Below the pieces are notes generated by a model that was not told where the DNA came from, ran no database searches, and was given only the letters and a program-made list of their open reading frames with translations. Shown one piece after another: positions 5,925 through 49,905 of a DNA stretch of 64,000 nucleotides. The stretch comes from a virus, in the IMG/VR virus record IMGVR_UViG_3300049846_002130, positions 1-64,000 of that record. One strand, written 5' to 3'. The stretch's first letter is position 1. Every line of letters starts with the position of its first letter. Both the position numbers and the translations under genes were made by a program.

Positions 5925-6152
5925 ATGAGACGACAATTTAAAAAGAGTCCGAAGCGTCATCAGCTCGGAGTACATTTGCGCTCCGTCAGGCGCACTATTA
6001 CAACACAGGAACTTGCTGATGCTTACGGGGTTAGCACTCGTACTATCAAGACTTGGTTCTCTACAGGTAAGTTAGTTTTTACTGGTAACCTGTTTGAGGA
6101 CTTAAAGATGTTGGAGACCCTTCGACAGGATCCCCAACACCCTAGTACGTGA
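5925..6152 (+). CDS. Helix-turn-helix DNA-binding protein (excisionase/MerR-like)
   Basis: TTQELADAYGVSTRTIKTWFSTGKL HTH pattern; AGGAG RBS. Confidence 0.8.
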   Translation: MRRQFKKSPKRHQLGVHLRSVRRTITTQELADAYGVSTRTIKTWFSTGKLVFTGNLFEDLKMLETLRQDPQHPST

Positions 6153-6312
6153 TCCTGGTGTAGCCACACTTGGTACACTTGAGACCTTGTGTAAAGCAAC
6201 CAGGTAATGAGCTGTTGATGCAGGCTCCTCGTGGGAGGATACCTTTCATGAGGGCGATATGGCCTGCTGGTACTAAGACCAGTCCAGGTTTCATGTTGTG
6301 TTCACATTGCAT
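6142..6312 (-). CDS. Small Zn-ribbon-like protein
   Basis: MQCEH...CTKCGY; GAGG RBS. Confidence 0.55.
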   Translation of the reverse strand: MQCEHNMKPGLVLVPAGHIALMKGILPRGACINSSLPGCFTQGLKCTKCGYTRITY

Positions 6313-6319
6313 TGTTGCC

Positions 6320-6523
6320 TCACATGTTGGTGTAAGCGGCGTAGGCGAGGCCGCCACAGAGAGTGACCAGCATGGCGATGAACCAGTTGGCCACGATCCA
6401 GTTGGCGGCGCTGAAGTACGGGTCGTTGTCGATGAGGTTGAGTAGCCCTGCGCAGAGCCCGTAGATGTTCATCATCCCCAGGAACACTGCTGGTACTCCG
6501 AAGAGTACGACGATGAAGATCAT
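6320..6523 (-). CDS. Small membrane protein
   Basis: 67 aa, hydrophobic; TGATG coupling to upstream pilin-like ORF. Confidence 0.65.
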   Translation of the reverse strand: MIFIVVLFGVPAVFLGMMNIYGLCAGLLNLIDNDPYFSAANWIVANWFIAMLVTLCGGLAYAAYTNM

Positions 6524-6666
6524 CACAGCACCCCGCTGGCAACACCGATGCAGTAGAGCAGGTACACCAGCACGGCACACCCGATGGCACCAAAGAACAG
6601 GGTGATGCTGACGATCATCAGCTCGATGACACTCACGCCCTGCTCGTCACGAAGGAACTTGATCAT
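6523..6666 (-). CDS. Type IV/Flp prepilin-like peptide (47 aa; not in ORF track)
   Basis: GAGGAG RBS; MIKFLRDEQG|VSVIELMIVSITLFFGAIGCAVLVYLLYCIGVASGVL*: G(-1), E(+5), long hydrophobic helix. Confidence 0.75.
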   Translation of the reverse strand: MIKFLRDEQGVSVIELMIVSITLFFGAIGCAVLVYLLYCIGVASGVL

Positions 6667-6931
6667 GCTCTCTCCTCGGCCAGTGGGCCTCCAGCCACTC
6701 GAACGCAGCTGGAATCTTGTTGTTGTCGTAGAAGCAGTCGTACGGCTTGTCGGAAGTGAAGTTGCGAGCCAAGCTCGGCTGACACAGAGAAGCCAGGTTC
6801 ACCAACGCCTGTCCGTCTCGCCACCCCATGCTCCTGAACCAGTGATGGAATTTGTTGGTCCAGTAGAAGTGTACGAACTCCAGGTAGGAACACCCTACGA
6901 GCTTCCCTGCGATGTCACGTAGGTTCTTCAT
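6647..6931 (-). CDS. Hypothetical protein
   Basis: AGGAG RBS before MKNLRD. Confidence 0.6.
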   Translation of the reverse strand: MKNLRDIAGKLVGCSYLEFVHFYWTNKFHHWFRSMGWRDGQALVNLASLCQPSLARNFTSDKPYDCFYDNNKIPAAFEWLEAHWPRREHDQVPS

Positions 6932-6938
6932 GTTGCTC

Positions 6939-7148
6939 CTAGTCGTGGACACTCAGAACGCCTTGGATGAACGCCCTGGTAGCCAACACCAGATCCTCGG
7001 TATTGGCGTTGAGCTTGATGATCACGCAGTTCACACCGGGCTTGACATCCGGCCAGAGCTGCACTTCTCCTTCTGCTACCACGAGGATTCCCTTGGCTTC
7101 CACCACAGGAGTCTCTGGGACAGGGAGTTCTTGACACACTGGGTTCAT
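6939..7148 (-). CDS. Hypothetical protein
   Basis: 69 aa, AGGAAGG RBS, ATGA overlap. Confidence 0.6.
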   Translation of the reverse strand: MNPVCQELPVPETPVVEAKGILVVAEGEVQLWPDVKPGVNCVIIKLNANTEDLVLATRAFIQGVLSVHD

Positions 7149-7393
7149 GGGCGACCTTCCTGCTTGCGCTTTTCACGAGCGCTCTTGCTACACCACTCCA
7201 TGTCGAGCTTGATCTGCTCGTTGGTACGATTGGTGCTGATGTCGATCATGCAGTAGTCTGGACCACCCAGGTCCTGCATGACGAACGCTTTCTTGCTTGG
7301 GCTGTAGACGGTTGGGCAGCTGTAGTGAATGTAGAGCATACACCCACCACAACAGAGGAGTAACAACACTACGAAGCCAATGTTGTTCTTCAT
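7145..7393 (-). CDS. Exported/membrane-anchored Cys-rich protein
   Basis: MKNNIGFVVLLLLCCGGC signal-like N-terminus. Confidence 0.6.
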   Translation of the reverse strand: MKNNIGFVVLLLLCCGGCMLYIHYSCPTVYSPSKKAFVMQDLGGPDYCMIDISTNRTNEQIKLDMEWCSKSAREKRKQEGRP

Positions 7394-7400
7394 GGCGTCT

Positions 7401-7565
7401 TTAATCTGGGCACACTGCTTTGTAGCAGTGGTCATAGGCGTCAAGGTTGATGTGAGTGCGGACCCCACACCATGAGATGATTACTGTGTTGCTTCTGGGG
7501 TAGAAGGTTATGATGGTCCCAATGTATCGGTCTTTGGGTGTCCACCCTTCGATAGTGAGAATCAT
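7401..7565 (-). CDS. Small protein ending in VCPD (member 5, 54 aa)
   Basis: AGGAGG RBS before MILTIEGW; ends CYKAVCPD*. Confidence 0.65.
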   Translation of the reverse strand: MILTIEGWTPKDRYIGTIITFYPRSNTVIISWCGVRTHINLDAYDHCYKAVCPD

Positions 7566-7573
7566 GTTTCCTC

Positions 7574-7723
7574 CTAGATGTACACGACGTGCTGGGGGCT
7601 GATCATGAACAGCACCTTGGGGTTTGTCCACGAAGCCAGTACAGCCTGGCCTCGAATGATGTGCGTCAGGTAGCCCAATCGATGAGCATGGGCGGGGGCG
7701 CTACCATGGACCTTGATGAGCAT
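7574..7723 (-). CDS. Hypothetical 49-aa protein
   Basis: GAGG RBS; MLIKVHG...PQHVVYI*. Confidence 0.5.
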   Translation of the reverse strand: MLIKVHGSAPAHAHRLGYLTHIIRGQAVLASWTNPKVLFMISPQHVVYI

Positions 7724-7940
7724 TCTGCACCTCGCTGCTTCTGTGTGGGTTTGGAGGCTTTTACCAATGCTTTACAGACCCCCGTGTTTTTTGCAAAACG
7801 TAGAGGTTTGTTGAGCACCAGTATGGGTTTGGGAGTAGGGAGTGTGGGCTTGAACCACCAACAGGTGTGACTATTTGCATTTTGTCACTTTTGTTGTTAG
7901 CCTGGGTAATGCACTACCCGTTCATGCTCCCCGTGAAGAA

Positions 7941-8022
7941 TGCGCCCTCCCGGACTCGAACCGGGACTCCTTTCGGAATTTGATTTTAAATCAAACGCGG
8001 CTACCAATTACGCCAAGGGCAC
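7941..8022 (-). tRNA. tRNA-Leu, anticodon UAA (reads TTA)
   Basis: Acceptor GTGCCCT/AGGGCGC, D-loop AATTGGTA, anticodon arm TTTGA-TTTAAAA-TCAAA, long variable arm, T arm CCCGG-TTCGAGT-CCGGG; CCA not encoded. Confidence 0.93.
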
Positions 8023-8093
8023 AGAGAAAGTTTGCTATTTAGTTATATTTCCTGATATAGTTAGGTTACCAATTTCGACAGAGGAGGAAAATT

Positions 8094-8588
8094 ATGATAG
8101 CCGAAGACTACTACTCAAGACGGGACATGGCGAGGAGATTACTGGGTGGGATTTGTGTGAGGTGTGGGACGGAGCAAGACTTGGAGTTTGATCATATTGA
8201 TCCGATGTTAAAGACTCATAGTGTTAATAAACTACTAGCTTCTGGATCAACAAAGTTGTTGAATGAGCTTGCTAAGTGCCAGCTTCTTTGTAAGGCTTGT
8301 CATTTAGCTAAGACAGTTGCTGAAAAAGAACCCTTTACTCATGGGACCATGTATGGGTGGATGAGACGTAAGTGTGGATGTACTGTTTGCTCAGGGGCGA
8401 AGAGAGCTTGGTATGATCTTCGAAATGAGAAACGTCGAGGACTTGGTACTGTTGTTAAGGGAGCTTATTCTAAAGATCCTGTTCATGGTACTAGTGCTAA
8501 GTATTCTCGTGGTTGTCGTTGCAGTGAATGTCGTGCAGCTAATGCTGATAAAGAACGTAAACGTAAGAAATCTAAGGCGATTATATAG
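8094..8588 (+). CDS. HNH endonuclease with two HGT..C.C..C zinc modules
   Basis: CVRCG..DLEFDHIDP...CQLLCKACHLAKT; AT-rich, opposite strand, next to tRNA. Confidence 0.88.
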   Translation: MIAEDYYSRRDMARRLLGGICVRCGTEQDLEFDHIDPMLKTHSVNKLLASGSTKLLNELAKCQLLCKACHLAKTVAEKEPFTHGTMYGWMRRKCGCTVCSGAKRAWYDLRNEKRRGLGTVVKGAYSKDPVHGTSAKYSRGCRCSECRAANADKERKRKKSKAII

Positions 8589-8617
8589 CCCCTGGCCTTG
8601 GGAACCAGGGGCTATAT
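8583..8617. terminator. Hairpin between convergent genes (probable bidirectional terminator)
   Basis: ATATAGCCCCTGG...CCAGGGGCTATAT 13-bp inverted repeat. Confidence 0.7.
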
Positions 8618-8645
8618 CTCTTATTTGACTTGTTGGCCTGGTTGT

Positions 8646-9110
8646 TTAGACCGGGACCTCGGGATCTGCGTCGGCATCCACCACACCGGCTTCCGTGGTG
8701 GTGGTGGTGGGAACCGTCCCACCCTTGAGCTTCGCGAGCGCCTCGAGCGCTTCCGCGAGCGGCACACCGGCCCCCAACATGGTCTTGAGGTACTCGGGGC
8801 CTGGGTCGACCACCGTGGTGGCTCCGGCCTCCGGAGGCGTCAAGAGCAGATGGAAGTACGACCTCCACACCGTGCTCTCGCTTCCCGGGATGGGTGGGTT
8901 GGAGGCCTTGAAGACCTCCTCGAACTCGTTGACCGGGAAGTTGGCGCCCTTGAGCTTTGCGTAGGCGTCCTTCATGACCTCGAACTTGGCGGCGTCCGTG
9001 GTGGAGGCCAGTAGGTCGCGGGCGATGCCCACGCTGATCTGACCATTCCGACGCGCGGTGACCTCGAACTTGGCTCCGAGGATCTTCTTGACACTGGCAA
9101 CGTTGAACAT
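8646..9110 (-). CDS. Hypothetical protein
   Basis: AAGGAG RBS before MFNVASVKK; GC3-rich codons. Confidence 0.8.
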   Translation of the reverse strand: MFNVASVKKILGAKFEVTARRNGQISVGIARDLLASTTDAAKFEVMKDAYAKLKGANFPVNEFEEVFKASNPPIPGSESTVWRSYFHLLLTPPEAGATTVVDPGPEYLKTMLGAGVPLAEALEALAKLKGGTVPTTTTTEAGVVDADADPEVPV

Positions 9111-9127
9111 GTACTCTCCTTTGGATG

Positions 9128-9397
9128 TTATCCGGAACACTCGGCTGCGTCAGCAGCCGACAGCGCCTCACGCCACTTCACCACTCGCTTTCGCAAATCC
9201 CCAATGAAGAAGCCGGTCACGGCTTGATGTGCCAGCGTCACCGAGCCCTCAGCCAGTAGACCAAGGGCAACGAACAACGCAATGGGAATCACGAAGAACC
9301 AGAAGAAGGTCTCGAGTAGGTCGAGAATTGGGGTGAGCAGGATGATGGTAAGCACCACCGCGGCACTGACCACCACCTGAGTGACAGTCCACCTCAT
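9128..9397 (-). CDS. Membrane protein
   Basis: GGAGG RBS before MRWTVTQ; two hydrophobic helices. Confidence 0.7.
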   Translation of the reverse strand: MRWTVTQVVVSAAVVLTIILLTPILDLLETFFWFFVIPIALFVALGLLAEGSVTLAHQAVTGFFIGDLRKRVVKWREALSAADAAECSG

Positions 9398-9708
9398 GCT
9401 GCCTCCTGCTCGACAAACAGGGCAGCGATTCGCTCCTGGATGTCCACAGCCTCGTTGAGCGTCTGAACGTACAATACGTTCTGGGCTGCGAACGCACTGG
9501 AGAGGGGATGGTGGCTGTTCTTGCTGTCTCGCAGAGCACATGCCCTGCTTAGGGTCGAGGCGAGCTTCTTCCGCAAGCTCTTGAGGCGAGCTGCGTCGTC
9601 ATTGTCTCGCTTCTTCCGAGCTTCTGGGCTTGGGATCTTCTCGAACCGGTCAGGCCACGCTCCATTGGGGTGCGGGGACTTGAACCGGTACCAGGGGGCT
9701 TCTTCCAT
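9394..9708 (-). CDS. Hypothetical protein
   Basis: AAGGAGG RBS. Confidence 0.75.
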   Translation of the reverse strand: MEEAPWYRFKSPHPNGAWPDRFEKIPSPEARKKRDNDDAARLKSLRKKLASTLSRACALRDSKNSHHPLSSAFAAQNVLYVQTLNEAVDIQERIAALFVEQEAA

Positions 9709-9839
9709 ATTACCTCCTTGACAACAGCGCTGTCAGGCGCTTGTTATGGGCTAGACTATAGGAAAGCTATCATTAAGGCTCTGTTAGCTATTACATGCTG
9801 GCTGCAATATGAGCCACCATGCCAAAACCTATAGTCTGC

Positions 9840-10103
9840 CTAGATGCCCATCACCCAGTAGGAGCCGTTCGCTTCACGGGGCATTGCGCGTCCCTGCGCG
9901 GCAAGCTCTTCCCAGATTGCTCTGGCCTTTGCCTGCCTGTCTGCTTCCAACTTCGCTGTGGTGCCGGCAATTCCCTTGACCTTGTCTCGGGATTCGCGCC
10001 CGTTCTGCGAGCCCTTACGGCCCACCATCTTTCGCTGCTCCTTGGTGTAGGAGCGATATGGGACGCCCGCTCCCTCACCCTTGCGTGCCTTTACTCCTGC
10101 CAT
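9840..10103 (-). CDS. Basic hypothetical protein (weak KGG-motif resemblance)
   Basis: AGGAGG RBS before MAGVKARK; SYTKEQRKMVGRKGSQ. Confidence 0.65.
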   Translation of the reverse strand: MAGVKARKGEGAGVPYRSYTKEQRKMVGRKGSQNGRESRDKVKGIAGTTAKLEADRQAKARAIWEELAAQGRAMPREANGSYWVMGI

Positions 10104-10111
10104 GGTACCTC

Positions 10112-10402
10112 CTACTTGCCAGCCATGAGCTTGCACCAGGCTTCACGTCCGAGTCCACCAGGCCTGTGAGTCGGACCCTTGTGGGCCGTGGTGCTCTTGG
10201 CAGCTGGTGCCTGCTGCATCTTTCGCCGAGCCTTGTTGGCCTCGTACTCGGGCTTGGTATACCGAGATGTGGCGAACGGTGTGGGCTTGGGGTCGTACTT
10301 GGTCAACCCCGGGTCACCCCGGAAGACCTTGCGCTTGATGACATGGGGCTTGAGCCCCTTGGCCTCTGCCCTCTTGGCCGGGTTGATGACGCAGCCCATC
10401 AT
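10112..10402 (-). CDS. Basic hypothetical protein
   Basis: AAGGAGG RBS; K/R-rich. Confidence 0.7.
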   Translation of the reverse strand: MMGCVINPAKRAEAKGLKPHVIKRKVFRGDPGLTKYDPKPTPFATSRYTKPEYEANKARRKMQQAPAAKSTTAHKGPTHRPGGLGREAWCKLMAGK

Positions 10403-10707
10403 TCCTCCTTCGTGTGGATGGTGATTCGGGTGTTGTTGGGCCCGAACTTGTAGAACACCGGACTTCCCTTCTCCCAGAAGGGATAGTCTTCTGGCAGGGC
10501 GACAGGTAGGGTGTCGGCCAGGGCCCAGGCAACCAACCTGTTCTTGGTGATGTCACGGAGGGCCACCTCCTTGACGATGTCCCGACGCTCCCGGAATTCC
10601 AGGCCCTGAATGGGAACCTGGTAGGTTCCCAGAATTTTGCCACTGTGGAAGATGCTGATGTCCAGCACATTGGTGGTGTGCTGGTACTTTCCCAGTACGT
10701 AGTACAT
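10399..10707 (-). CDS. Hypothetical protein
   Basis: AAGGAAAG RBS; 102 aa. Confidence 0.7.
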   Translation of the reverse strand: MYYVLGKYQHTTNVLDISIFHSGKILGTYQVPIQGLEFRERRDIVKEVALRDITKNRLVAWALADTLPVALPEDYPFWEKGSPVFYKFGPNNTRITIHTKEE

Positions 10708-10839
10708 GGTCTTTCCTTGTTTGAGTTAGTAGCTTCAGGCTACCTCTGGGTTGGTCGCTCGTCTCCAGTCTTTTGCGCCAGTTCAGGCAGGCGAATAAAG
10801 AGAGGAGGCGGGCGAAGCCCAACCTCCTCAACCGGACCG

Positions 10840-13740
10840 TCAGGTCCGGTTCAGTGACCTTGTCAGTGACGAAAGCCACTGGCTTTCTGCTGACGCCTTG
10901 CGGGTTCTGATGGTGTTGACCACTTCGGAGGTCAACTTGGCCATGCAGTCAGGGCAATCCCAGAGTGGGATTCCTTGATCGTTGGCGTCCTTGATTTCCA
11001 GTTGGTGCTGGCTGCTTTTGGACACAATCCACGTCAGCTTCTGCGTGGGGTCTGGGTCCTTGAGAGCCATGTCGACACATCGTTGGAGTCGTTGCTCCCG
11101 ATGGAGAAACTGACACTCGTAGGTGTGTTCGATTCCCAGAATCTCCATGATGGGAGAGCCTGGGTAGCACACTGCCCGGAATGCATTGTTCAGGTTGGGC
11201 CTGAAGCTTTCGCTTGTCTCAGAGGTCTCGTGCTCCCAGATTTCGACGAGAGCAGTGATGCGCTCGCTTTCCGGAAGCTGAGCAAGGAACAGCTGAAGCT
11301 CTTCTTCGAGCTTCTGCTGTGCCCCAAGTACCTGGTTTGCCCTACGCTCTTCGTTGGCGGAGAGCGATGAGAGCGCATCGTTGTACTTGCCAAGACCACA
11401 CTTGGCTCGAAGGCCTTGTTGGTACTTGGTGTGATTGACAACGATATGTGGTACTACCACGCCCTTTGCTGCCAACACAAGCCTCAACAGTGGGTTGAGG
11501 TCAATGTTGGTCTTGCTCTGGAACTGAGGCTCTTCCTCTTCCCAGAGCTTGAAGCAGTGGCGTGCAGCGATGTGCACGAGGTTCTCATGTTCGCTGACGG
11601 GTGGCAAGAACCACTCATCAACGTTCACTCGTTGACCTCGGCGTCTCCACCACAGAGGGTCCAGGGCCTTCATCTTCCCATCGTCCTGAGCTGCACAGCA
11701 GCCGGCTGCGATGAGTCGACCATCCACCCACTCTTTCAGTCTCTTCATGGGGATCTCTCCCCCTTCGAGCTGATCGGAGGTGTAGCGGATGGTGAAGTGC
11801 CACCCATCTTCACGCTGCTCCCAATTCGTTGGGTCAGCAGCCTTTTCGATGTTGGACCACTCTGGTACTCGCTTCTGACGGTCAATGCACTCCTGAATCG
11901 CGATGCTCAGCGCACGAGCACCGTTCAGGTCACCGACTGCCAGAAGCCGCGACCGCCACACGGTACACCGACCCACTGGGCCACGATGATCGTAGCGCAG
12001 GTACTCCAGGCCCTCTGGAGTATTGGTCATCAACGGACCACCATTCTTGGCAGTCAGTTCCACACCTTTTGGTTCGATGTGGAAGATGTCGTTGTCGTTC
12101 CGGTAGCTGAACAGCTCCAGAATGTCTGGGCTGTCACTGACGCCCAGAATATCTCCGTCATCGTCACCCTGCATCTTGATCGTCAAGTCTGCAGGGTTCA
12201 TGATGATTTGGAATGGAGGCAGCTCATCGTTTACCAGATGATGAGCTTTGGGCTTGATGGTCTTCATGACTACCAGACCCTGAGGCAGAATCATTGGAAA
12301 CCTGAATGCTGCCACCTGCTTGCCGGGTCGCATGCCTGCAACCACACAGTGGCCAGCAGGCACAGTGGCGTCCAGACGAGCAACGTAGCTCCTGAACTTA
12401 CCACCTCCGCCCTGTTCCGTTCTTCCCAGGGTTCTGGCGAGACGGTCCTTGACCGCCTCTGCCACTCTGGGAATGTCCATCGGGGACACTGCGTGGCCCT
12501 CGGAACGAATCACGTTCACGAAGTCCACGATGCCTTTGATGGTGGTGTCACGCCTGGCGATTTGATTCACCAGGCCATCAAGGCCCTTGGCGAACAGTTT
12601 ACCCATGGCCTTGTCGACCATGTTGCGTACGACCTCTGCCGTACGACCGTTCACCTGGATATTCTCCAGCATTTCGAAGCTGCCGGAGATCCGCCGCGGA
12701 CGGTCCCATGCCTGCAGGATGCCGACGTAGCAGCCTCCCACAGCCTTGACCCTGTTGTCGGCCCGACGCTGCTTTGCCTCGGGCTTCCAGCGGCCCTTGA
12801 TTTGCGTCCAGTCGAGTACGATGCCCTCGACCTTGTCGGACGGGAAGATCGTGCCCTTGGCGAATAGCCCACTCTCGGGCTGCAAGAGCCGGAACTGGCA
12901 GGGCACAGCTCCGTACTTGGCTACGAATGCAGCCATCTCAGGACAGGTTGGGTTGTAGATGCCCGACCCGTCTGTTTTCAAGTCCACACCCTCCGCGTCA
13001 CGCAGAGTGGTGAACGTGACATTGGCGTTCTCGATGAAGCCCTCGGGGAGCACCGGGGCATTGAGGCCATGACAGTACGCAGACATGTCGATGGCCTTCG
13101 GGAATGCCTTGAGCAACAACTTGTAGGCTGGGTGGTCCATGTTCCAGCCCAGACGCTCACCGGAGACAGCGATGTGGAGGCTGTTCAGCTCCGCAAGGCC
13201 GCCCTTGAAGGTTTCGCGCCCCTCTTCGTCCTCTCGCTTGTCGATGGTCGACAAGATGTTCATCGCTACGGCAGAGGACTGCTGACCGTGCAGAACCCCG
13301 CTGATGAGAGCAAGGAGCCCAAAGCTCCGCAGCTCTCGATCGTAGCGCCACCGACACCGCTCCTCGTTGAGTCGGTAGAAGGTGTACACTGGCTCACGGA
13401 TGTACGTGAGCCGATTTGCTGTCCGCTTCTCGAAGCGCACCAGGCGCTCTTGAAGCCTCTTGATGTCTTTGGTGGCCAAGGTCTCGTATGCCAAGGTCAC
13501 CAAGTCTTCGGCAAATACTTCGGCCAGCTCACTGAATCCCATGGACGTGAACACATCCACGAGGTCCTCGATCTTGGTCAGGGGCTTCGTTTGCACCCTG
13601 GCCACGTAGTCGCCCAGCATGTCGCCGGGCAACTCCTCCTCCGTCCCCCGAGGCTCGTCGAGAGTGATGGAGTTCAGAAACTCCAGAACCCTCCGCTCCT
13701 CGTTGCGGATCTCGAAGTTCTCAACACTGAGGTTGTTCAT
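10840..13740 (-). CDS. Single-subunit two-barrel RNA polymerase, YonO/QDE-1 (cellular RdRP)-like; probable non-virion RNAP, 966 aa
   Basis: Ordered motifs TDGSG, QFR..AKG, WTQIKG, RFP, catalytic GDDDGD (12151-12168), VG helix, QECIDRQK; start MNNLSV at 13740 after AGGAGG. Confidence 0.88.
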   Translation of the reverse strand: MNNLSVENFEIRNEERRVLEFLNSITLDEPRGTEEELPGDMLGDYVARVQTKPLTKIEDLVDVFTSMGFSELAEVFAEDLVTLAYETLATKDIKRLQERLVRFEKRTANRLTYIREPVYTFYRLNEERCRWRYDRELRSFGLLALISGVLHGQQSSAVAMNILSTIDKREDEEGRETFKGGLAELNSLHIAVSGERLGWNMDHPAYKLLLKAFPKAIDMSAYCHGLNAPVLPEGFIENANVTFTTLRDAEGVDLKTDGSGIYNPTCPEMAAFVAKYGAVPCQFRLLQPESGLFAKGTIFPSDKVEGIVLDWTQIKGRWKPEAKQRRADNRVKAVGGCYVGILQAWDRPRRISGSFEMLENIQVNGRTAEVVRNMVDKAMGKLFAKGLDGLVNQIARRDTTIKGIVDFVNVIRSEGHAVSPMDIPRVAEAVKDRLARTLGRTEQGGGGKFRSYVARLDATVPAGHCVVAGMRPGKQVAAFRFPMILPQGLVVMKTIKPKAHHLVNDELPPFQIIMNPADLTIKMQGDDDGDILGVSDSPDILELFSYRNDNDIFHIEPKGVELTAKNGGPLMTNTPEGLEYLRYDHRGPVGRCTVWRSRLLAVGDLNGARALSIAIQECIDRQKRVPEWSNIEKAADPTNWEQREDGWHFTIRYTSDQLEGGEIPMKRLKEWVDGRLIAAGCCAAQDDGKMKALDPLWWRRRGQRVNVDEWFLPPVSEHENLVHIAARHCFKLWEEEEPQFQSKTNIDLNPLLRLVLAAKGVVVPHIVVNHTKYQQGLRAKCGLGKYNDALSSLSANEERRANQVLGAQQKLEEELQLFLAQLPESERITALVEIWEHETSETSESFRPNLNNAFRAVCYPGSPIMEILGIEHTYECQFLHREQRLQRCVDMALKDPDPTQKLTWIVSKSSQHQLEIKDANDQGIPLWDCPDCMAKLTSEVVNTIRTRKASAESQWLSSLTRSLNRT

Positions 13741-13859
13741 GGACCTCCTAAAGCTTAGCATTGGCTGCGTCAGCAGCCATAAAAAAGGGAAGGCCACAAT
13801 AGGGCCTTCCGGATTCAAGACAGAACCTTGATGGTCTATCCTATCACTAACTTTCTTTC

Positions 13860-14252
13860 TTAGCCGTCGATGCCGATGGCCCACCGGAGCTTAGCCCCCT
13901 GGAGGTAAGCCCCACGGAGGTTGGCCCCCTGGAGATTGGCCCCCCAAAGGTCAGCCTCCCGAAGGTCAGCCCACCGGAGGTCAGCCCCCTGGAGGTCAGC
14001 CCCCTGGAGGTCAGCCTCCTGGAGGTAAACCCACTGGAGGTCAGCCCCCCAGAGGTCAGCCTCCCGGAGGTTAGCCCCCCGGAGGTCAGCCCACTGGAGG
14101 TCAGCCCCCCGGAGGTCAGCCCGCCGGAGGTCAGCCCTCTGGGGCACGACACTCTCTTCAACAGCATGGGCTTCGAAGCCCTGGCTTCGAAGCCAAGCTT
14201 GGTGAGGCCCGTACCAAGGGAAGCGGGCCATGAGCTCAGTGTGGTTGGTCAT
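13860..14252 (-). CDS. Pentapeptide repeat protein, paralogue 3 (130 aa)
   Basis: GGAGG RBS before MTNHTELMARFPWYGPHQAWLRSQGFEA; A(D/N)L(R/Q)x repeats. Confidence 0.92.
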   Translation of the reverse strand: MTNHTELMARFPWYGPHQAWLRSQGFEAHAVEESVVPQRADLRRADLRGADLQWADLRGANLREADLWGADLQWVYLQEADLQGADLQGADLRWADLREADLWGANLQGANLRGAYLQGAKLRWAIGIDG

Positions 14253-14316
14253 CTTGCCTCCGGAGCGCTTGCTCTGGGTCGCTCCAAAACAAAGGGGGCC
14301 GTCAGGCCCCCGCGCA

Positions 14317-14493
14317 TCAGAACTCAAACTCATCGGGAAATGTTTCTTCCACATCTCCCAAGTACACCAGACAAAGAATATTCTCTGTCAGATATGCAAT
14401 GCGGAGGGCTTCCGCATTGTCGGCCATGAGTCCCAGCTCGAAGGCAGCATCTGCTACCTCGAACCAGAACTCCACCTCATCATGAAGAGCCAT
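14317..14493 (-). CDS. Small very acidic protein (58 aa)
   Basis: AAGGAGG RBS before MALHDEVE; 15 D/E vs 1 R. Confidence 0.7.
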   Translation of the reverse strand: MALHDEVEFWFEVADAAFELGLMADNAEALRIAYLTENILCLVYLGDVEETFPDEFEF

Positions 14494-14684
14494 GGTTCCT
14501 CCTTTGGCTTTAAAAGGGTGGGAGCCTTCTGTGCTCAAGTCTTGAGTCTCTGCGGAGTGAGCCTGCCTGAAGGTGGTTTGCGGAGTCGTGGTATCCCTTG
14601 GGTCTTTACCACTTAAGTCTTCCAATCACAAATTAAAGGTTCAATAAAAGAAGGGCAGTTTATACTCTTGCCCAGGAGTCTATG

Positions 14685-15065
14685 CTAGTTGTTGTGCACC
14701 ACGAGCTTGATGACCCACGGAAGCAGGTTAAGCTCGTTGCCATCGATGGTGAAGGAGTTGTAGCAGGACTCCTCCAGCTTCTGCTTGCACCTCTCCAGCA
14801 GGAACTCGTAGGTATTCCGATCGTCGTAGCGGTACGGCCAGATGGCGTACATCGGATTGCTGTGCCGAGGCTTCCACTCCTCGTAGGTCAGGATGTGACG
14901 GTAGTACGTCGTGACCTTGATGGTCTCGTCCTCGATCTCGATCTGAACGTCCTGTCCAGGTCCACTCCTGCTACGATCCTTCAGGTAGCCATGGAAGGTG
15001 GTGGTCCCGCTGGTCTCCCAGATGAAGGCCCCCACCACGAACTCCACCCACTGCGCGTACGTCAT
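14685..15065 (-). CDS. Hypothetical protein
   Basis: AAGGAG RBS before MTYAQW. Confidence 0.75.
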   Translation of the reverse strand: MTYAQWVEFVVGAFIWETSGTTTFHGYLKDRSRSGPGQDVQIEIEDETIKVTTYYRHILTYEEWKPRHSNPMYAIWPYRYDDRNTYEFLLERCKQKLEESCYNSFTIDGNELNLLPWVIKLVVHNN

Positions 15066-15135
15066 TGTCTCTCCTTGTTGGTCACCATGACCATAAAAGA
15101 AGGGGTAGTTTATCCACATACCCCAGGTGGTTGGA

Positions 15136-15387
15136 CTAGAACGGGATGTCGTCGTCGTTCAGGCTGTCCACGAACATACGGATTTCCTCGGCCTCCTGTG
15201 CGGTCATCGGCTGTTCGTTCCTGCTCTTCCACTCCTGGTCCACACACCAGTCCTCGTACAGGCGCTGGTAGTGCTGAGCCTTCTGGTGAAGATCCAGATG
15301 CTGCTCCATCGGAACACTCTTGTCGAACGAAGCGTCGAACATCTGCCACCAGAAGTCAGCCAGGTCACGCGGATTCAGCTCACGCAT
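15136..15387 (-). CDS. Small helical protein with SSB-like C-terminal DDDIPF
   Basis: 83 aa ending LNDDDIPF*; GGGAG RBS. Confidence 0.75.
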   Translation of the reverse strand: MRELNPRDLADFWWQMFDASFDKSVPMEQHLDLHQKAQHYQRLYEDWCVDQEWKSRNEQPMTAQEAEEIRMFVDSLNDDDIPF

Positions 15388-15471
15388 TGTAGCTCCCTAT
15401 AGTGCTGTGTGCACCATAAAAGAAAGGGGAATACCTAGGTATTGGACCTAGTGCTATTCCCTACCAGCTAA

Positions 15472-16011
15472 TCAGTCGATACGACGCAGGTGCAGGTGGT
15501 CGTTCCGGAAGAACGCCTCCCACTTGATGGACCTGCGGCCCAAGGCCACGCTCCTGAGCTTGGCCAAGAACTCCTGACACTCCCCCCTATGGGAGATGTA
15601 GAAGCTCTTGTCGAACCACACGGCGAACTCCTCACGTTCCCGGGTCTGAGTGTGGTTGTTGCACTTGAGGTGCTCCCAGAGGGGATTGATGGGCTTGATG
15701 CCCAGCATGTCCAGCAACATGTTCACGTCGCAGTCGTACTCGGGTTCGACCTCCTCACCCGGGAGCTTGGGCATGCCCGACTCCAGGTCCGTGGTCTCGT
15801 TGGTGGACTTGGGCTTCTGGTAGAACGCCAGGGCCTCCTTGCACTGCTCCAGATCCTGGGTGATGCACTCCACCTTCTCCTGGAGCTTGGGCAGGAACGC
15901 CATGATGTCGTGCTCCATCTTCTCCTTGGTCACCCCCTGGTAGTCGATGGCCTTGCTCTCCACGATGGACGCAAGGACGTTGATGATCGCCAGGGTGTCG
16001 TTCTTGGTCAT
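15472..16011 (-). CDS. Hypothetical protein
   Basis: AAGGAG RBS, 179 aa, coiled-coil-like N-half. Confidence 0.75.
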   Translation of the reverse strand: MTKNDTLAIINVLASIVESKAIDYQGVTKEKMEHDIMAFLPKLQEKVECITQDLEQCKEALAFYQKPKSTNETTDLESGMPKLPGEEVEPEYDCDVNMLLDMLGIKPINPLWEHLKCNNHTQTREREEFAVWFDKSFYISHRGECQEFLAKLRSVALGRRSIKWEAFFRNDHLHLRRID

Positions 16012-16124
16012 GCTCTCTCCTTAGACCTATCGGGTCTTTGTTTTGGCTCTCACCTTATTGTGAGGCCATAAAAAGGAAAGAGAAAGAAAAGGGTAGGGGT
16101 TGGACCTACCAATTTCTTCCGGCT

Positions 16125-16340
16125 TTAGCGGTATCCCATGTAGTAGCAGATCCGCACCATGGCCTCCTCTGGGCCGACGAGCCGGAGGAGCACCCTCCAT
16201 GCTTCATCGGCCTCCCTCTCGGCCTCGGCGTATTCAGCGATCCACTCGGGATCGTCGCACGATACCGAGGGCCACGGGGCCCTGTTCTGGTCCGCCACGA
16301 GACGGGCCAAACGCGAAACCTCACTGCCGATGGTCTTCAT
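16125..16340 (-). CDS. Hypothetical protein
   Basis: AAGGAG RBS. Confidence 0.7.
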   Translation of the reverse strand: MKTIGSEVSRLARLVADQNRAPWPSVSCDDPEWIAEYAEAEREADEAWRVLLRLVGPEEAMVRICYYMGYR

Positions 16341-16401
16341 GTTCTCTCCTTTATGGCAGGTAGTTCTGCCGTAAAAGAAAAAGGGGCCAGGCCCCCGTCT
16401 C

Positions 16402-16542
16402 TCAGGTTTTGATCATGTTGTCCATGATCATCAACAACAGCCCATAGAGGGCTGCCAGTGCGCTCAGGAACAACGTTCCCATGTCGGGTGCATTGGTGAT
16501 GACGGCCAGTGAGACGATCGTACAAATGAACCCGATACGCAT
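16402..16542 (-). CDS. Small membrane protein (46 aa)
   Basis: GGAGG RBS; MRIGFICTIVSLAVITNAP...LYGLLLMIMDNMIKT*. Confidence 0.6.
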   Translation of the reverse strand: MRIGFICTIVSLAVITNAPDMGTLFLSALAALYGLLLMIMDNMIKT

Positions 16543-16642
16543 GTTGCCTCCAATCTTTGGTCTTGCTTCGTTGCCAGACCATAAAAGAGAGAAAAGAAAA
16601 GGGGACTACTCAGGTATTGGACCTGATGCTAATCCCTTCGCA

Positions 16643-16894
16643 CTAGTTCTCGTCCGGCAGCTCGATCTCGCCCGGGAACTCCTGGGCCCAGGCGGCCCAG
16701 CTCGTGTACGTCTCGTTGCCTTCCTCGTCCACCTCCGGATACCCGGTGAGGATAAGCAGGAATCCTCCCTCCCGTCCGATGATCGGGCCCGCCGGGTACT
16801 GCTCCTCTCCGATCAACACCTCCCCATCGCCCTCGGGCAGCCGGCTCGCGATCCGAGGGGAGAATGCCGACGGGGCGATGATCATCTTGAACAT
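16643..16894 (-). CDS. Acidic hypothetical protein
   Basis: AAGGAG RBS; E/D-rich C-half. Confidence 0.7.
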   Translation of the reverse strand: MFKMIIAPSAFSPRIASRLPEGDGEVLIGEEQYPAGPIIGREGGFLLILTGYPEVDEEGNETYTSWAAWAQEFPGEIELPDEN

Positions 16895-16979
16895 GTCTTC
16901 TCCTTAATGCCTTAGGGAAGTTATCTAAGGCCATAAAAGAAAGGGGTAGTTATACTCCACCCCCAGGAGTCAGACTTGA

Positions 16980-17435
16980 CTAGCTTTCGAGGCTAGCCAA
17001 GTCTCCCTGCCAGAAGAACAAGCTGGCGAGCCCGTCCTCCTCCACCTCCCGCTCGTTGTTCAGCTCATCGCAGAGCTGGTCGAGTGCGAGGGTTTCCTCG
17101 ACGATCTGGGCTGCCTTATCCATCTCGGACCAGAAGACCACCATGGCCCCATGGAGAGCGTTGATGCTAAACGCATGCTCCTCGCACACCTCCACTTCGA
17201 AGGCCGGGTCAATCTGGTCGAACCAGATCTCGGTCATGAGTTCCTCGCCCCAGAACACCATGTCCTCGGGGATCTCGAATACGTGGACCAGGTCAGCCTG
17301 CTCCTCCTCGTGGTACACGATCTGGACGCTCTCGGCACAGACCGGGTGGAGAGCGATGATGTCCTCGAAGGTCACGATGGCCCCGACGACGATGACGACG
17401 AGGAGGAACAACGACACCAGGGTGATGGCGAGCAT
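16980..17435 (-). CDS. Membrane-anchored extremely acidic protein (151 aa)
   Basis: GGAG RBS before MLAITL; N-terminal TM helix; about 33 D/E vs 2 K/R. Confidence 0.7.
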   Translation of the reverse strand: MLAITLVSLFLLVVIVVGAIVTFEDIIALHPVCAESVQIVYHEEEQADLVHVFEIPEDMVFWGEELMTEIWFDQIDPAFEVEVCEEHAFSINALHGAMVVFWSEMDKAAQIVEETLALDQLCDELNNEREVEEDGLASLFFWQGDLASLES

Positions 17436-17469
17436 GTTAGCTCCAAGCCTACTAGGTGTAGGCTGTTGT

Positions 17470-18149
17470 TGGTTGGTAGACTTAGAAACTAAGTCTGGTA
17501 GGTGGACTGGGACCACCACGGCCTAAGGTTCTGTGATTGTCCTTTTAGACCTTAAGGTCTGCCCATGGATATCGGGTTTGGCTAGTGGGTTGGTCTTACT
17601 GTCATGCCACGAGTATAGCCAGACTCGTTTGCACCAGATCCAGGTGCTTGGTTGACTTACTCAGTAAGTCAGAGGGTGTGTGTTATCCGCGTACACCAAG
17701 CGGGATGGTATGTTGTACTACAAGCACATGCTGGTAGTAGTGTAGGTCCCCACCTAGGTACCGTTCCCTATAGGGTGATGTCCCCTATGGTAGGTAGTAC
17801 CATGCCTAGGCTACTTGTCGTAGTGCCAACGCTAGGTGCCCCTAGAAGTCCTATGTCTCTTTACCGCATAGGAGATCGGTTGTTTCCATGGCGCATATAC
17901 CTAGTACGTATAGTGTACCCATCGTGGGCACCTATACGGGCTACTAGGTAGGCTACCTGGGGGATGTACCCCTTGCCTTCGTGTGGTGGACTCCACACTA
18001 GTATGCTGCCCAGCATACACCCGTATACACCCGCAGGCGTATACTTCTGCTACACGGTTAATACTTGCTTAAGCAAGTATTAACCTACTACATATCCAGT
18101 GATTGCTCTTCCCAGGTATGTAGGGACATGGTCATATCGCTATGACCAT
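17470..18149 (-). ncRNA. Candidate structured ncRNA or long 5' leader (tandem hairpin array)
   Basis: More than 15 consecutive stem-loops, no RBS-supported ORF, starts at a cassette copy; two stems pair via G-U only on the - strand. Confidence 0.5.
18056..18085. repeat. Perfect 30-bp palindrome
   Basis: GGTTAATACTTGCTT|AAGCAAGTATTAACC. Confidence 0.95.
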
Positions 18150-18178
18150 AAAAGAAAAGGGGGCCGAAGCCCCGATCA

Positions 18179-18277
18179 TCAGGCGATGCGCCCGATGATC
18201 AACCCAATACCGAATCCCACCATCGTCATGGCAATGATGGCAATGCAAGAAGCACACATAAGGATGATGATGCCCAT
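18179..18277 (-). CDS. 32-aa hydrophobic peptide
   Basis: GGAGG RBS directly after cassette; MGIIILMCASCIAIIAMTMVGFGIGLIIGRIA*. Confidence 0.55.
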   Translation of the reverse strand: MGIIILMCASCIAIIAMTMVGFGIGLIIGRIA

Positions 18278-18338
18278 GTTAACCTCCGTAAAAGAAAAGG
18301 GGGCTATATCTCCTATGGATATAGCCCACTAGTAGGTG

Positions 18339-18488
18339 TTAGTAGTCCTTGATAAGACTACCGAGCACCCACTCCTCGCCATCGATACCCTCGTTATTGA
18401 GAGCATGGAGATAGCGCACGAACATCCTCGTACACACGCTTCCCTTACGGTAGGCGTTAACGAGAACGAACAGAGCGGTGGTACGCAT
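18339..18488 (-). CDS. 49-aa hypothetical protein (first leftward gene)
   Basis: GGAGG RBS before MRTTALF. Confidence 0.55.
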   Translation of the reverse strand: MRTTALFVLVNAYRKGSVCTRMFVRYLHALNNEGIDGEEWVLGSLIKDY

Positions 18489-18745
18489 GGTACCTCCAAG
18501 ACATGTAGATGCTGAATGCATCATACAGAGGTCATAAAAAGAAAGAATAAAATAAAAAGAGGGGTCAATACTTTAGGCCGGTGGGCTCCGAACTCCGGAT
18601 TGGATAACCATGATATATCTACCTGGTCCACAAAATTATATATATAATATATTACATAATCCATAGCCACATATTGCTTATATCTATACCAACTACACCG
18701 ATGCTCCAGCTTAATCTGCACTATCTTCTACTTGCACTTGCACTA

Positions 18746-48800: not shown

Positions 48801-49905
48801 TTCTGAACAAGAAGCATATGTAGATAGATTGGATTATCTAACTAATAAGCGGTGGGCTGGATATGTTGATCAAGAGTTTGATCCAAATGCTATTCGTCTT
48901 CCTGGAAGTTCTTTTATTGCGGAGGGCAAGAGAGAAATCTTTAAGATGGCTAGGAAGGGTTTGGGGCCATTAGAATATCTAACACCATTCCGTCCACTAC
49001 AAAAACTTCTTGGCGATAGAGATCCAATTGAACAGTATGAATATGAAAGACTATATGGTAGCTCTGTTGCTTTCTGGGACAAACCATTTAGAGATTTCTT
49101 AAGACCAGCTATGTACTCCTTAGCTAACTATATGGGTTTTAGTGGTAAGCCCATATGGAGGCATGATGCTGATGCGACTAATGAACTATTTGATAAGGCA
49201 GAGTTTTACAAATGGATGTCTCTTGCAGAGCAGGCAGCAGCTCAAGGAGATACTCGAGATAAAATTCGATATGAGTATTTAGCAAGTAATACTCGTATGG
49301 GGGTAAACCCATACGGCAACCCATTAAGTATATACTGGTCTCTTCCTAATGAAGACCGAACTTATTTTAGTGCTTTTGCAACAGCAACTGGTAAGGACCG
49401 AGAACGTATTTTACAGATGGTTCCGGCAGACCAGGTACACCTTTATAAAGCTATGTGGTCTAGAGAAGATGCTGAAGATCCTAGTTTATGGACTGGGCTT
49501 AATACATCTCCCGACCAACAATACTTGTTTTCACAATACAATCAGTTAGATCGGAGTCAGTTGCCCGCCGATGATTGGATAGGCTATAACCAAGATGTCG
49601 ATATGCGGGACATCAAAGTTAGGTATGTTAATCAACAAGGTAAGGAGCTGCGTGACTTTGGTTTATGGGAGCAGGAACTTAAAAAAGCATATTCTCAACC
49701 ATACCTAGAAGGTTCTGAAACAGCAATTAGTTCTACGGAAATCAAAAGAGGCTGGTTAATGCATAGTATGAATAAGGTTTTTGATACTAGCGATATAAGC
49801 TTAATTAGTGGTAGTTCTCGCTATGGCACGATGGATTTAAATTATAATGATGATCGCCAAGTAGATATCGATAGGGCATTATTAGGGCAAATGAATGGCT
49901 ACTGA
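45886..49905 (+). CDS. Tape-measure-like large virion protein (1339 aa)
   Basis: Position after chaperones; Gly/Ala-rich hydrophobic blocks; helical C-terminus. Confidence 0.55.
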   Translation: MFEPYGSMVWSNQPTQPSENRPNRYLNLGLASVAMGGAFAYGLHSRPDDTRPIDALISVARNVGNLTPYQIGNTFRVPEFLSPFASPKYHRLTAKGGQYTHTWDAASLSNSSTYSYLKELTGLSDSQLHSFGIGSRSSKANLVFKKDATAVHGQLYSVLNGKESLLRSNVMLMQYTGERNEVLTSLGKAPEFTPVNKAIKSVFAAMDMWRYKDFKEGNVLLSGKNRPSLIPVPGIEASYSGTTYLRSIGAFQMERFNHLLGNIGGELFGSSLDKVFKRILGTGVGVASGPASSMFFRFGGKAALAGAIGIGAVAETDWIRRRFGTPGHMIASTAIAGGLGVLATRAGFKGKTGALIAGGAFIGQMLLPGFNKGVVPGLATSYTNLQLARASSLNPFNYYRRTVEGFLPGISGFGVAAGIGIAMATAPHLKIPGTGRRVPQILLDQLGRTTLGFKPKTLSGLSVEVPKTVRDIFWDKMMSHGLQELNGPKFAKIYQQYAANGHYSTMSMRNRLMREFYTQRPVEETSRAMEHLFAAAETEYDELAKRNPINHHMVDELTAIATRYSGKGDFISRATMQAEGLVSQLKHSFFGAVLHEESTAKAMASLGFKSPLGSFGLLFAAGATAFGIASGGLLGSMRTKEELEDIYSGRQLVEVKKGRFWEAGGTPWEGGLTSQLRPHWYPIMMSRAQQAGTWGSDEDNLDPISKWALSNFTYELERRNYYDRPYPISGAAFANVPIIGGLLSSTIGRLIKPPKIMHANEWARMGAGGAEYASLYEGWKREPSYAMGASMPGIPISPYSAAHALSQVNYQAQELAGLTGWVGSLIQEGLTGKPYWHGDSPVLADASILSSARRTLWDAQLGGMGPLGEIIRRVLPSYPKDVERTNPLLNTMPSWLPDQFAYGDPYAQIPYGEAVLPGPGYAALHPELRGVSPEDYPLLHRYNILSQVSPLSKEFRSTKDKVYRARAAGLLTSEQEAYVDRLDYLTNKRWAGYVDQEFDPNAIRLPGSSFIAEGKREIFKMARKGLGPLEYLTPFRPLQKLLGDRDPIEQYEYERLYGSSVAFWDKPFRDFLRPAMYSLANYMGFSGKPIWRHDADATNELFDKAEFYKWMSLAEQAAAQGDTRDKIRYEYLASNTRMGVNPYGNPLSIYWSLPNEDRTYFSAFATATGKDRERILQMVPADQVHLYKAMWSREDAEDPSLWTGLNTSPDQQYLFSQYNQLDRSQLPADDWIGYNQDVDMRDIKVRYVNQQGKELRDFGLWEQELKKAYSQPYLEGSETAISSTEIKRGWLMHSMNKVFDTSDISLISGSSRYGTMDLNYNDDRQVDIDRALLGQMNGY

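Follow-up and report, generated by a model that had tools for sequence, protein, structure and literature searches.

A ~640-nt conserved structured element in a narrow phage lineage, best read as a previously uncatalogued large RNA

Genomic setting of the element

The stretch analyzed here, referred to as the window, comprises positions 1-64,000 of an IMG/VR virus record of 183,528 bp, and coordinates are those of the window unless another source is named. The record derives from an uncultured freshwater phage of 183.5 kb with a genome GC content of ~38%. Its large terminase is only remotely related to those of isolated phages, with 24-29% identity to Moorella phage MTATph1, Bacillus phage 0305phi8-36, and others. 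A structural module on the plus strand, including terminase and portal, runs rightward from ~18.7 kb, and a minus-strand block of mostly small genes, at 55-60% GC, runs leftward from ~18.5 kb to 6 kb. Inside this leftward block, between the gene for a 32-aa peptide and that for a 151-aa protein, lies an element that is present as a single copy in the genome. Its conserved core of structured RNA, ~640 nt assigned to the minus strand, spans 17495-18132, and its parts are collected in Table 1.

Table 1 Parts of the element and adjoining features, listed from upstream to downstream on the minus strand
Feature	Coordinates	Strand	Description
Upstream gene	18179-18277	-	32-aa hydrophobic peptide; stop precedes the cassette
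Upstream cassette	18146-18175	-	5-bp GC hairpin with 4-nt loop (18160-18173); pyrimidine tract ending CTTTTATGG (18146-18159); from terminator scan
P0 hairpin	18128-18149	-	9-bp stem, 4-nt loop, starts at the cassette ATGG; every homologue has a hairpin of unrelated sequence there (alignments by reading)
Helix H2 and mini-hairpin with GYAA (GNRA) tetraloop	18088-18123	-	H2, five pairs changed on both sides; mini-hairpin, two covarying pairs
Variable site V1	18056-18085	-	30-nt perfect palindrome in the window; short hairpin with GCAA/GUAA loop in four lineages
Variable site V2	18022-18049	-	Optional hairpin, sequence differs by lineage; absent from L066 and L076
Central domain (model R1)	17885-18023	-	Hairpins H5, H6, and H7; long stem H8/H9 around an inner hairpin
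Hairpins H11, H12, and H13	17809-17873	-	Both-side changes in three pairs of H11 and two of H12; H12 loop invariant GGCA
Variable site V3	17759-17794	-	Covarying stems; 7-nt loop conserved (GACAYYA-like); not present in L066 or L076
H16 and H17	17684-17754	-	Most conserved block (89% to L065); invariant flanking single strands; three both-side pairs in H16
Variable site V4	17629-17675	-	Window has two hairpins; other lineages carry different ones or a longer insert
3' domain	17497-17628	-	H18; V6 (17547-17560 in the window); 32-nt block invariant in six sequences
Window-specific hairpin	17478-17496	-	8 bp, just past the conserved core; absent from all homologues
Linker region	17436-17477	-	CA-rich linker (17465-17477); hairpin with compensatory changes (17446-17464); GGAG ribosome-binding site (17441-17444)
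Downstream gene	16980-17435	-	151 aa, N-terminal hydrophobic helix; ATG at 17433-17435; adjoins the RNA wherever a contig reaches

The high-GC block covers 12.5 kb (6000-18500), with third-position GC of up to 0.9 and every gene on the minus strand. A compositional step to high GC is also present in the relative L065, and two smaller high-GC patches occur elsewhere in the genome (1-1000, and genome positions 177501-178000). The window contains only one tRNA (7940-8023), 9.5 kb from the element. Neither the 151-aa protein nor most other proteins of the island found a match in PHROGs or Pfam, and an Atlas look-up of the 151-aa protein returned no usable lead. A pentapeptide-repeat protein (PF00805, E 1e-35) is encoded at 13860-14354 on the minus strand, just upstream of the gene for a 1014-aa protein (10840-13884, minus strand). 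The latter has a GDDDGD motif at residue 574, and the proteins that resemble it in the Atlas bear an RdRP-type (PF05183) annotation (features score 0.95, TM-scores 0.44-0.53). In the structural module, a 1668-aa protein (49895-54901, plus strand) presents GDFDGD at residue 1248. Sequence searches of Pfam, PHROG, and PDB gave no match for either protein, and we regard both as candidate two-barrel RNA polymerases. Between the small genes and the large terminase lies the gene for a 994-aa protein with a staphylococcal-nuclease domain (PF00565; 20094-23078, plus strand), which is conserved in the relatives L078 and L079. Further down the leftward block of relatives, a gene encodes an L7/L12 ribosomal protein domain (PF00542; L065:10232-10321, L078:31-450, and one ENA contig).

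The record ends in a 127-bp repeat (1-127 and 183402-183528) that looks like the k-mer overlap an assembler leaves when a genome is circular or circularly permuted, rather than a physical terminal repeat. Since a circular assembly is the best reading of the record, position within the window is uninformative as to the physical genome end, and the first-pass suggestion of a genome-entry signal is left without a basis. An AT-rich stretch at 18600-18680, where overlapping palindromes coincide with the divergent strand switch and with the lowest cumulative GC skew, is more plausible than the flagged region as a site of divergent promoters or of an origin.

The cassette at the upstream edge of the element looks like an intrinsic terminator, and may also serve as a phage promoter or start signal. 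Six strong copies of its motif, a hairpin with the invariant word CTTTTAYGG, occur within 15417-18327, each in minus orientation, where they separate the leftward genes. In two copies a ribosome-binding site follows directly after the YGG, an arrangement suggestive of a start function besides termination. The cassette is present in all homologous contigs (L065, L066, L070, L074, L075, and L078) and recurs in the more distant relatives L045-L048, L006, L052, and L012; the window copy at 18146 retains 27 of 28 nt in L046/L047, whose terminase is only ~43% identical. The first-pass annotation had the flagged region begin at this cassette, and a hairpin at 18128-18149 does abut it there. Should the 1014-aa and 1668-aa proteins both be two-barrel RNA polymerases, the cassette word would become a candidate promoter for one of them.

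Homologues, coding capacity, and covarying structure

Homologues of the element reside on seven further distinct metagenome contigs of related phages, and copies identical to the window were found in three more assemblies. Among 5.8 billion proteins, just four are related to the 151-aa protein (45-50% identity), and each of their contigs (L065, L066/L067, L074, and L075) bears a long gene-free stretch before the gene that can be aligned to the window as DNA—for instance, at 70% identity over 943 nt in L066 and 86% over 339 nt in L065. A 19-nt invariant word identified the public metagenome contig L070 (71% over 784 nt), the one true homologue in a metagenome pattern scan that otherwise returned two chance matches. 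A better-conserved 239-aa neighbor across the strand switch led to two more lineages, L076/L077 and L078, the last from a GenBank metagenome assembly and aligned by nhmmer over the first 180 nt only. The nhmmer profile covers L065, L066, L070, and L074 at full length, ~530 nt of L076/L077, the 3' part of L075, and the 5' part of L078. Contigs from four further runs, of which two are labeled activated sludge and wastewater, one is unlabeled, and one is coded, match the most conserved parts at 80-95% identity and map to the block containing H16 and H17. Wherever contigs are long enough, gene order is constant: divergent switch, small gene or genes, cassette, element, and 151-aa homologue.

Beyond this set, searches were consistently negative. 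No match was obtained when the region was compared by blastn with 50,697 phage records, when IMG/VR was scanned under the guidance of the neighboring 151-aa and 994-aa proteins, or when IMG/VR was searched for exact patterns drawn from invariant blocks; a pattern scan of GTDB genomes yielded three chance matches only, and a profile of the 151-aa family found no further members. The nhmmer profile and the covariance model R1 detected nothing in 59 loci around the TerL of relatives, whose TerL is 41-52% identical (a set that includes one 138-residue TerL fragment at 65%). Likewise, profile and covariance model gave no match in 10 virus records of TerL relatives, six of them at least 99% complete, in whole-record searches that carried no positive control. 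The element family thus seems to be confined to a narrow lineage from freshwater, sediment, and wastewater-type samples.

Within its neighborhood the element is the best-conserved stretch. In a 2.7-kb pairwise alignment of the window with L065, identity is 85-93% per 100 nt across the element, compared with 44-81% in the flanking coding sequence. No open frame is conserved across it. The longest, of 110 codons on the plus strand, is kept in no homologue and shrinks there to 31-66 codons, several 1-nt indels punctuate the alignment of the core, and codon-phase GC is flat over 17.4-18.3 kb, whereas the flanking genes are strongly three-base periodic. The description of the region as free of open reading frames accordingly holds, for conserved frames, across 17440-18150. 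Because the best-conserved stretch keeps no frame, the element is non-coding and under purifying selection. One homologue, L074:275-901, is L065-like in the 5' two-thirds of the RNA and of the window/L075 type in the 3' third, a mosaic that would indicate recombination inside the element.

The element folds far better than expected by chance: for 711 nt compared with dinucleotide shuffles, z = -6.7 on the minus strand and -7.0 on the plus strand, and the homologues L065 and L078 score -5.1 and -4.0, respectively. The element contains six perfect hairpins (stems of 7 bp or more) per 700 nt, against a genome mean of 1.4, although hairpin density is enriched about two-fold over the whole high-GC island (6-18.5 kb) and one coding stretch is denser than the element. 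All hairpins listed in the first-pass annotation occupy their assigned places (17478-17496, 17547-17560, 17653-17671, nested at 17898-17950, 17981-17998, and 18001-18018), and to these can be added the perfect 30-nt palindrome at V1 and P0 itself. The element is 52% GC. Its word usage is also unusual, with CTAG at 12.6 per kb in 17495-18130 versus 1.2 in the surrounding block, TAG at 35 per kb, and an abundance of GTAC, TATA, and CCTA/TAGG words.

RNAalifold, applied to four and then six sequences, predicts about twenty helices, and these covary among the homologues. Over the whole element (six-sequence MAFFT alignment), 98.8% of the cells in 127 pairs are standard pairs, and 23 of the 127 have changed on both sides. 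Column shuffling never attained these values in 500 trials; with the 3' partners slid by 1-3 columns, 0-3 double changes and 27-41% pairing are left. In the central domain, where seven sequences were aligned by fitting to the R1 model, 21 of 45 pairs have changed on both sides with 96.4% of cells paired, again unmatched in 500 shuffles, and slid registers give 0-4. The sequences amount to only ~5 independent lineages and the shuffle control ignores their shared ancestry, so these statistics are inflated. With the R1 covariance model, which describes the 139-nt central domain, the window obtains 166 bits, L076 obtains 109, and L078 obtains 54.6 (E 1e-11). L078 matches R1 over its full length even though its stems are almost entirely different in sequence.

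The long-range helices H1, H14, and H19 have no both-side changes, varying on one side or not at all, and L076 lacks the 3' partner of H14. The 3' arm of P0 overlaps the 5' arm of the predicted helix H1, with five bases shared. Loops and joining strands stay unchanged over long distances (as much as 39 nt with two transitions, or 32 nt without a change), a pattern that speaks for tertiary contacts or a binding partner. The loop of the H2 mini-hairpin is GCAA or GUAA in all sequences, while the GGCA loop of H12 is not a GNRA loop. The terminal block of the 3' domain is replaced in L076/L077. An exhaustive search for extra helices and pseudoknots produced too many alternatives to trust, owing to the richness in GUAC-, CUAG-, and ACAC-type words and to the presence of only ~5 lineages.

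Interspersed with the conserved helices are sites V1-V6, at which the sequence and length of the hairpin depend on the lineage or the hairpin is absent. The zero-loop palindromes of the window are lineage-specific expansions and not the conserved part. The V1 palindrome expands a short GNRA-capped hairpin, and the palindromes at 17547-17560 and 17653-17671 are the window versions of V6 and V4. A near-identical small hairpin (CUUGC/GCAAG-type stem with a UUA/UUAA center) occurs at V1 of the window and at V6 of L074 and L075, as if hairpin modules might move between variable sites. What had been described as a tandem array of independent hairpins is therefore better viewed as one multi-domain fold with variable hairpin sites. 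The broader proposal of an undescribed structured RNA or leader fared well: homologues exist, they are better conserved than the flanks, their helices covary, and no Rfam family matches.

Strand, transcription, and competing explanations

Which strand is functional cannot be read from folding, since fold z-scores, alifold energies, and counts of G-U versus A-C are about equal on both. Two stems had been singled out in the first-pass annotation as closing with G-U on the minus strand only; these read as described, but the systematic G-U/A-C count does not separate the strands. Gene context and tetraloops are more telling. The minus strand carries all neighboring genes as well as cassette, ribosome-binding site, and start codon, whereas no gene, promoter-like site, or terminator-like site for a plus-strand unit was found flanking the element. 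The tetraloops of two hairpins are GNRA only when read on the minus strand, and remain GNRA while switching between GCAA and GUAA; several internal wobble pairs of covarying helices are likewise G-U on this strand. On this basis the functional strand is probably the minus strand, an assignment we make with good confidence. A plus-strand RNA, either an antisense or a convergent transcript, would fold equally well (z = -7.0), has a slightly lower alifold energy and more G-U cells, and would turn a few stem intermediates that are A-C on the minus strand into G-U. Yet the plus strand is rich in G+T, which by itself creates more G-U pairs, and with neither flanking signals nor GNRA loops to its credit a plus-strand molecule is very improbable.

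The account we lean toward is that the element is a functional minus-strand RNA made as a leader. Transcription would proceed leftward, with the hairpin and U-tract of the cassette ending the upstream unit; CTTTTAYGG may mark the start of the next unit, in which case the P0 hairpin would form the 5' end of the transcript. No terminator was found by scan between the element and the 151-aa gene, which suggests that the element is co-transcribed as the 5' part of the transcript of that gene. The RNA may then serve during infection as a scaffold, a decoy, or a partner in a ribonucleoprotein, perhaps once processing has released it. As the element is far better conserved than the 151-aa protein, an RNA function of its own appears more likely than a mere switch for the gene, although co-transcription with the 151-aa gene fits a purely cis-acting leader equally well, and within the leader account action in trans is only moderately favored. 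A more ambitious version, which we offer tentatively, would make the element a new ornate RNA class of ~150-190-kb environmental phages, apparently those with two-barrel polymerases. Produced from the first leftward units, such an RNA would work in trans, whether by assembling from RNA alone or by serving as decoy or scaffold for a factor of host or phage such as polymerase, nuclease, or ribosome, and not as a regulator of the next gene. If the element is indeed a functional RNA, the long gene-free gap of this phage lineage is a gene product and not spacer DNA, a possibility for which annotation should allow.

Several other explanations merit weighing against a minus-strand RNA with its own function. 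The element could be purely a cis-acting leader, a folded 5' UTR that controls stability, termination, or translation of the 151-aa mRNA and does nothing besides. The lack of a terminator before the gene would be expected of such a leader, as would the conserved CA-rich linker, hairpin, and ribosome-binding site that come after the element and the linkage to the 151-aa gene wherever a contig reaches; moreover, the five bases common to P0 and H1 would permit a conformational switch. Nevertheless, ~640 nt kept at 85-93% identity ahead of a protein that is only 45-50% identical are hard to explain as the regulator of that protein, no known riboswitch or leader family matches, and the core does not visibly sequester the ribosome-binding site, which comes with a small hairpin of its own. 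We consider a purely cis-acting role unlikely. At the other extreme, the idea of a gene in decay, or of functionless hairpins lined up by chance, could claim only the small open frames (99 aa on the plus strand and 51 aa on the minus strand); these are unconserved, in a stretch more conserved than the flanking genes, with covariation and with folds far better than shuffles, so that this explanation is scarcely credible.

A function at the level of DNA—as a replication origin, a packaging signal, or extruded hairpins serving as N4-like promoters for a virion RNA polymerase—is a further alternative. The element lies 0.5-1 kb from the divergent strand switch and the minimum of cumulative GC skew, contains several perfect palindromes with loops of 0-3 nt that would suit cruciforms, and shares its genome with a gene for what is apparently a large virion-module protein with GDFDGD (a lead only); compensatory changes would preserve DNA hairpins as well as RNA helices. 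For an origin, as the first-pass annotation had also proposed, or a packaging signal, however, support falls away: the element has no iterons or direct repeats other than a 1.9-copy 10-mer, and at 52% GC it is not AT-rich, the AT-rich stretch being elsewhere (18600-18680). For extruded promoters, the zero-loop palindromes are lineage-specific and not the conserved part, and hairpin sequences vary where N4-type promoters require conservation. Finally, loops and single strands are conserved across 640 nt together with nested and long-range helices, and no known origin or promoter needs such an arrangement. We judge a DNA-level role improbable.

Comparison with known RNAs and DNA elements

To our knowledge, RNA classes longer than 500 nt are very scarce once ribosomal RNA, RNase P, and introns are set aside. 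Only recently were ROOL, GOLLD, and OLE shown to be self-assembling RNA machines of unknown purpose. The element belongs to no family in Rfam: cmscan returned no match at gathering score on the window and none at E up to 1 in five homologous contigs, and with E relaxed to 10 over 17200-18700 the only two hits were chance-level matches to eukaryotic families (E 6.9 and 8.5), outside the element. ROOL (RF03087) and GOLLD (RF01998), the two families named for comparison in the first-pass annotation, were no exception; like OLE (RF01071), they are unmatched in the window at E up to 10 and in the five homologous contigs at E up to 1. Riboswitches, ribosomal-protein leaders, and small ribozymes of Rfam also found no match to the element in the window or homologues. 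Introns were considered and rejected. The group I model (RF00028) gave no match at E up to 10, and the flanks consist of a terminator-like cassette and a separate ribosome-binding site with ATG; the group II models (RF00029 and domain models) gave none either, and the conserved 5' end is without GUGYG.

OLE, a bacterial RNA of the Bacillota with the partners OapA, OapB, and OapC, resembles the element in being ornate, ~600 nt long, and situated beside a membrane-protein gene, but these partners are absent here and its model does not match. The RNA II pre-primer of ColE1 is a multi-hairpin molecule of ~550 nt that functions as an RNA close to a region controlling replication. It is akin to the ~640-nt element in size and in its many hairpins; none of the results on the element speaks for priming, and the element differs in having no iterons and no adjacent AT-rich unwinding element, and in a probable direction of transcription away from the AT-rich switch. 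The early promoters of phage N4 are short, sequence-conserved DNA hairpins with 3-nt loops that stand at the start of the early region and serve the virion RNA polymerase. Hairpins with 3-nt loops are found here too, and this phage may likewise encode a virion RNA polymerase, but the sequences of the hairpins vary between homologues while the 640-nt architecture is kept.

The closest parallel is offered by ROOL and GOLLD, large ornate RNAs of phages and prophages whose homo-oligomer contacts are marked by palindrome-switching loops (Nature 2025, PMC12286853). With these RNAs the element shares its ~0.6-0.8 kb size class, its encoding by a phage, many covarying helices, highly conserved loops and joining strands, and the lack of a known protein partner. 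Loops that switch between palindromes, the oligomer signature of ROOL and GOLLD, were not seen by eye in the element, which moreover lies outside a tRNA island, forms a 5' leader before a protein gene, and is known from a narrow phage lineage only. On balance, the element is best read as a large structured phage RNA, previously uncatalogued and, by Rfam models, unrelated to ROOL, GOLLD, or OLE. At 640 nt, the family presents a tractable case—amenable to in vitro transcription, chemical probing, and cryo-EM—through which the role of large phage RNAs may be approached.
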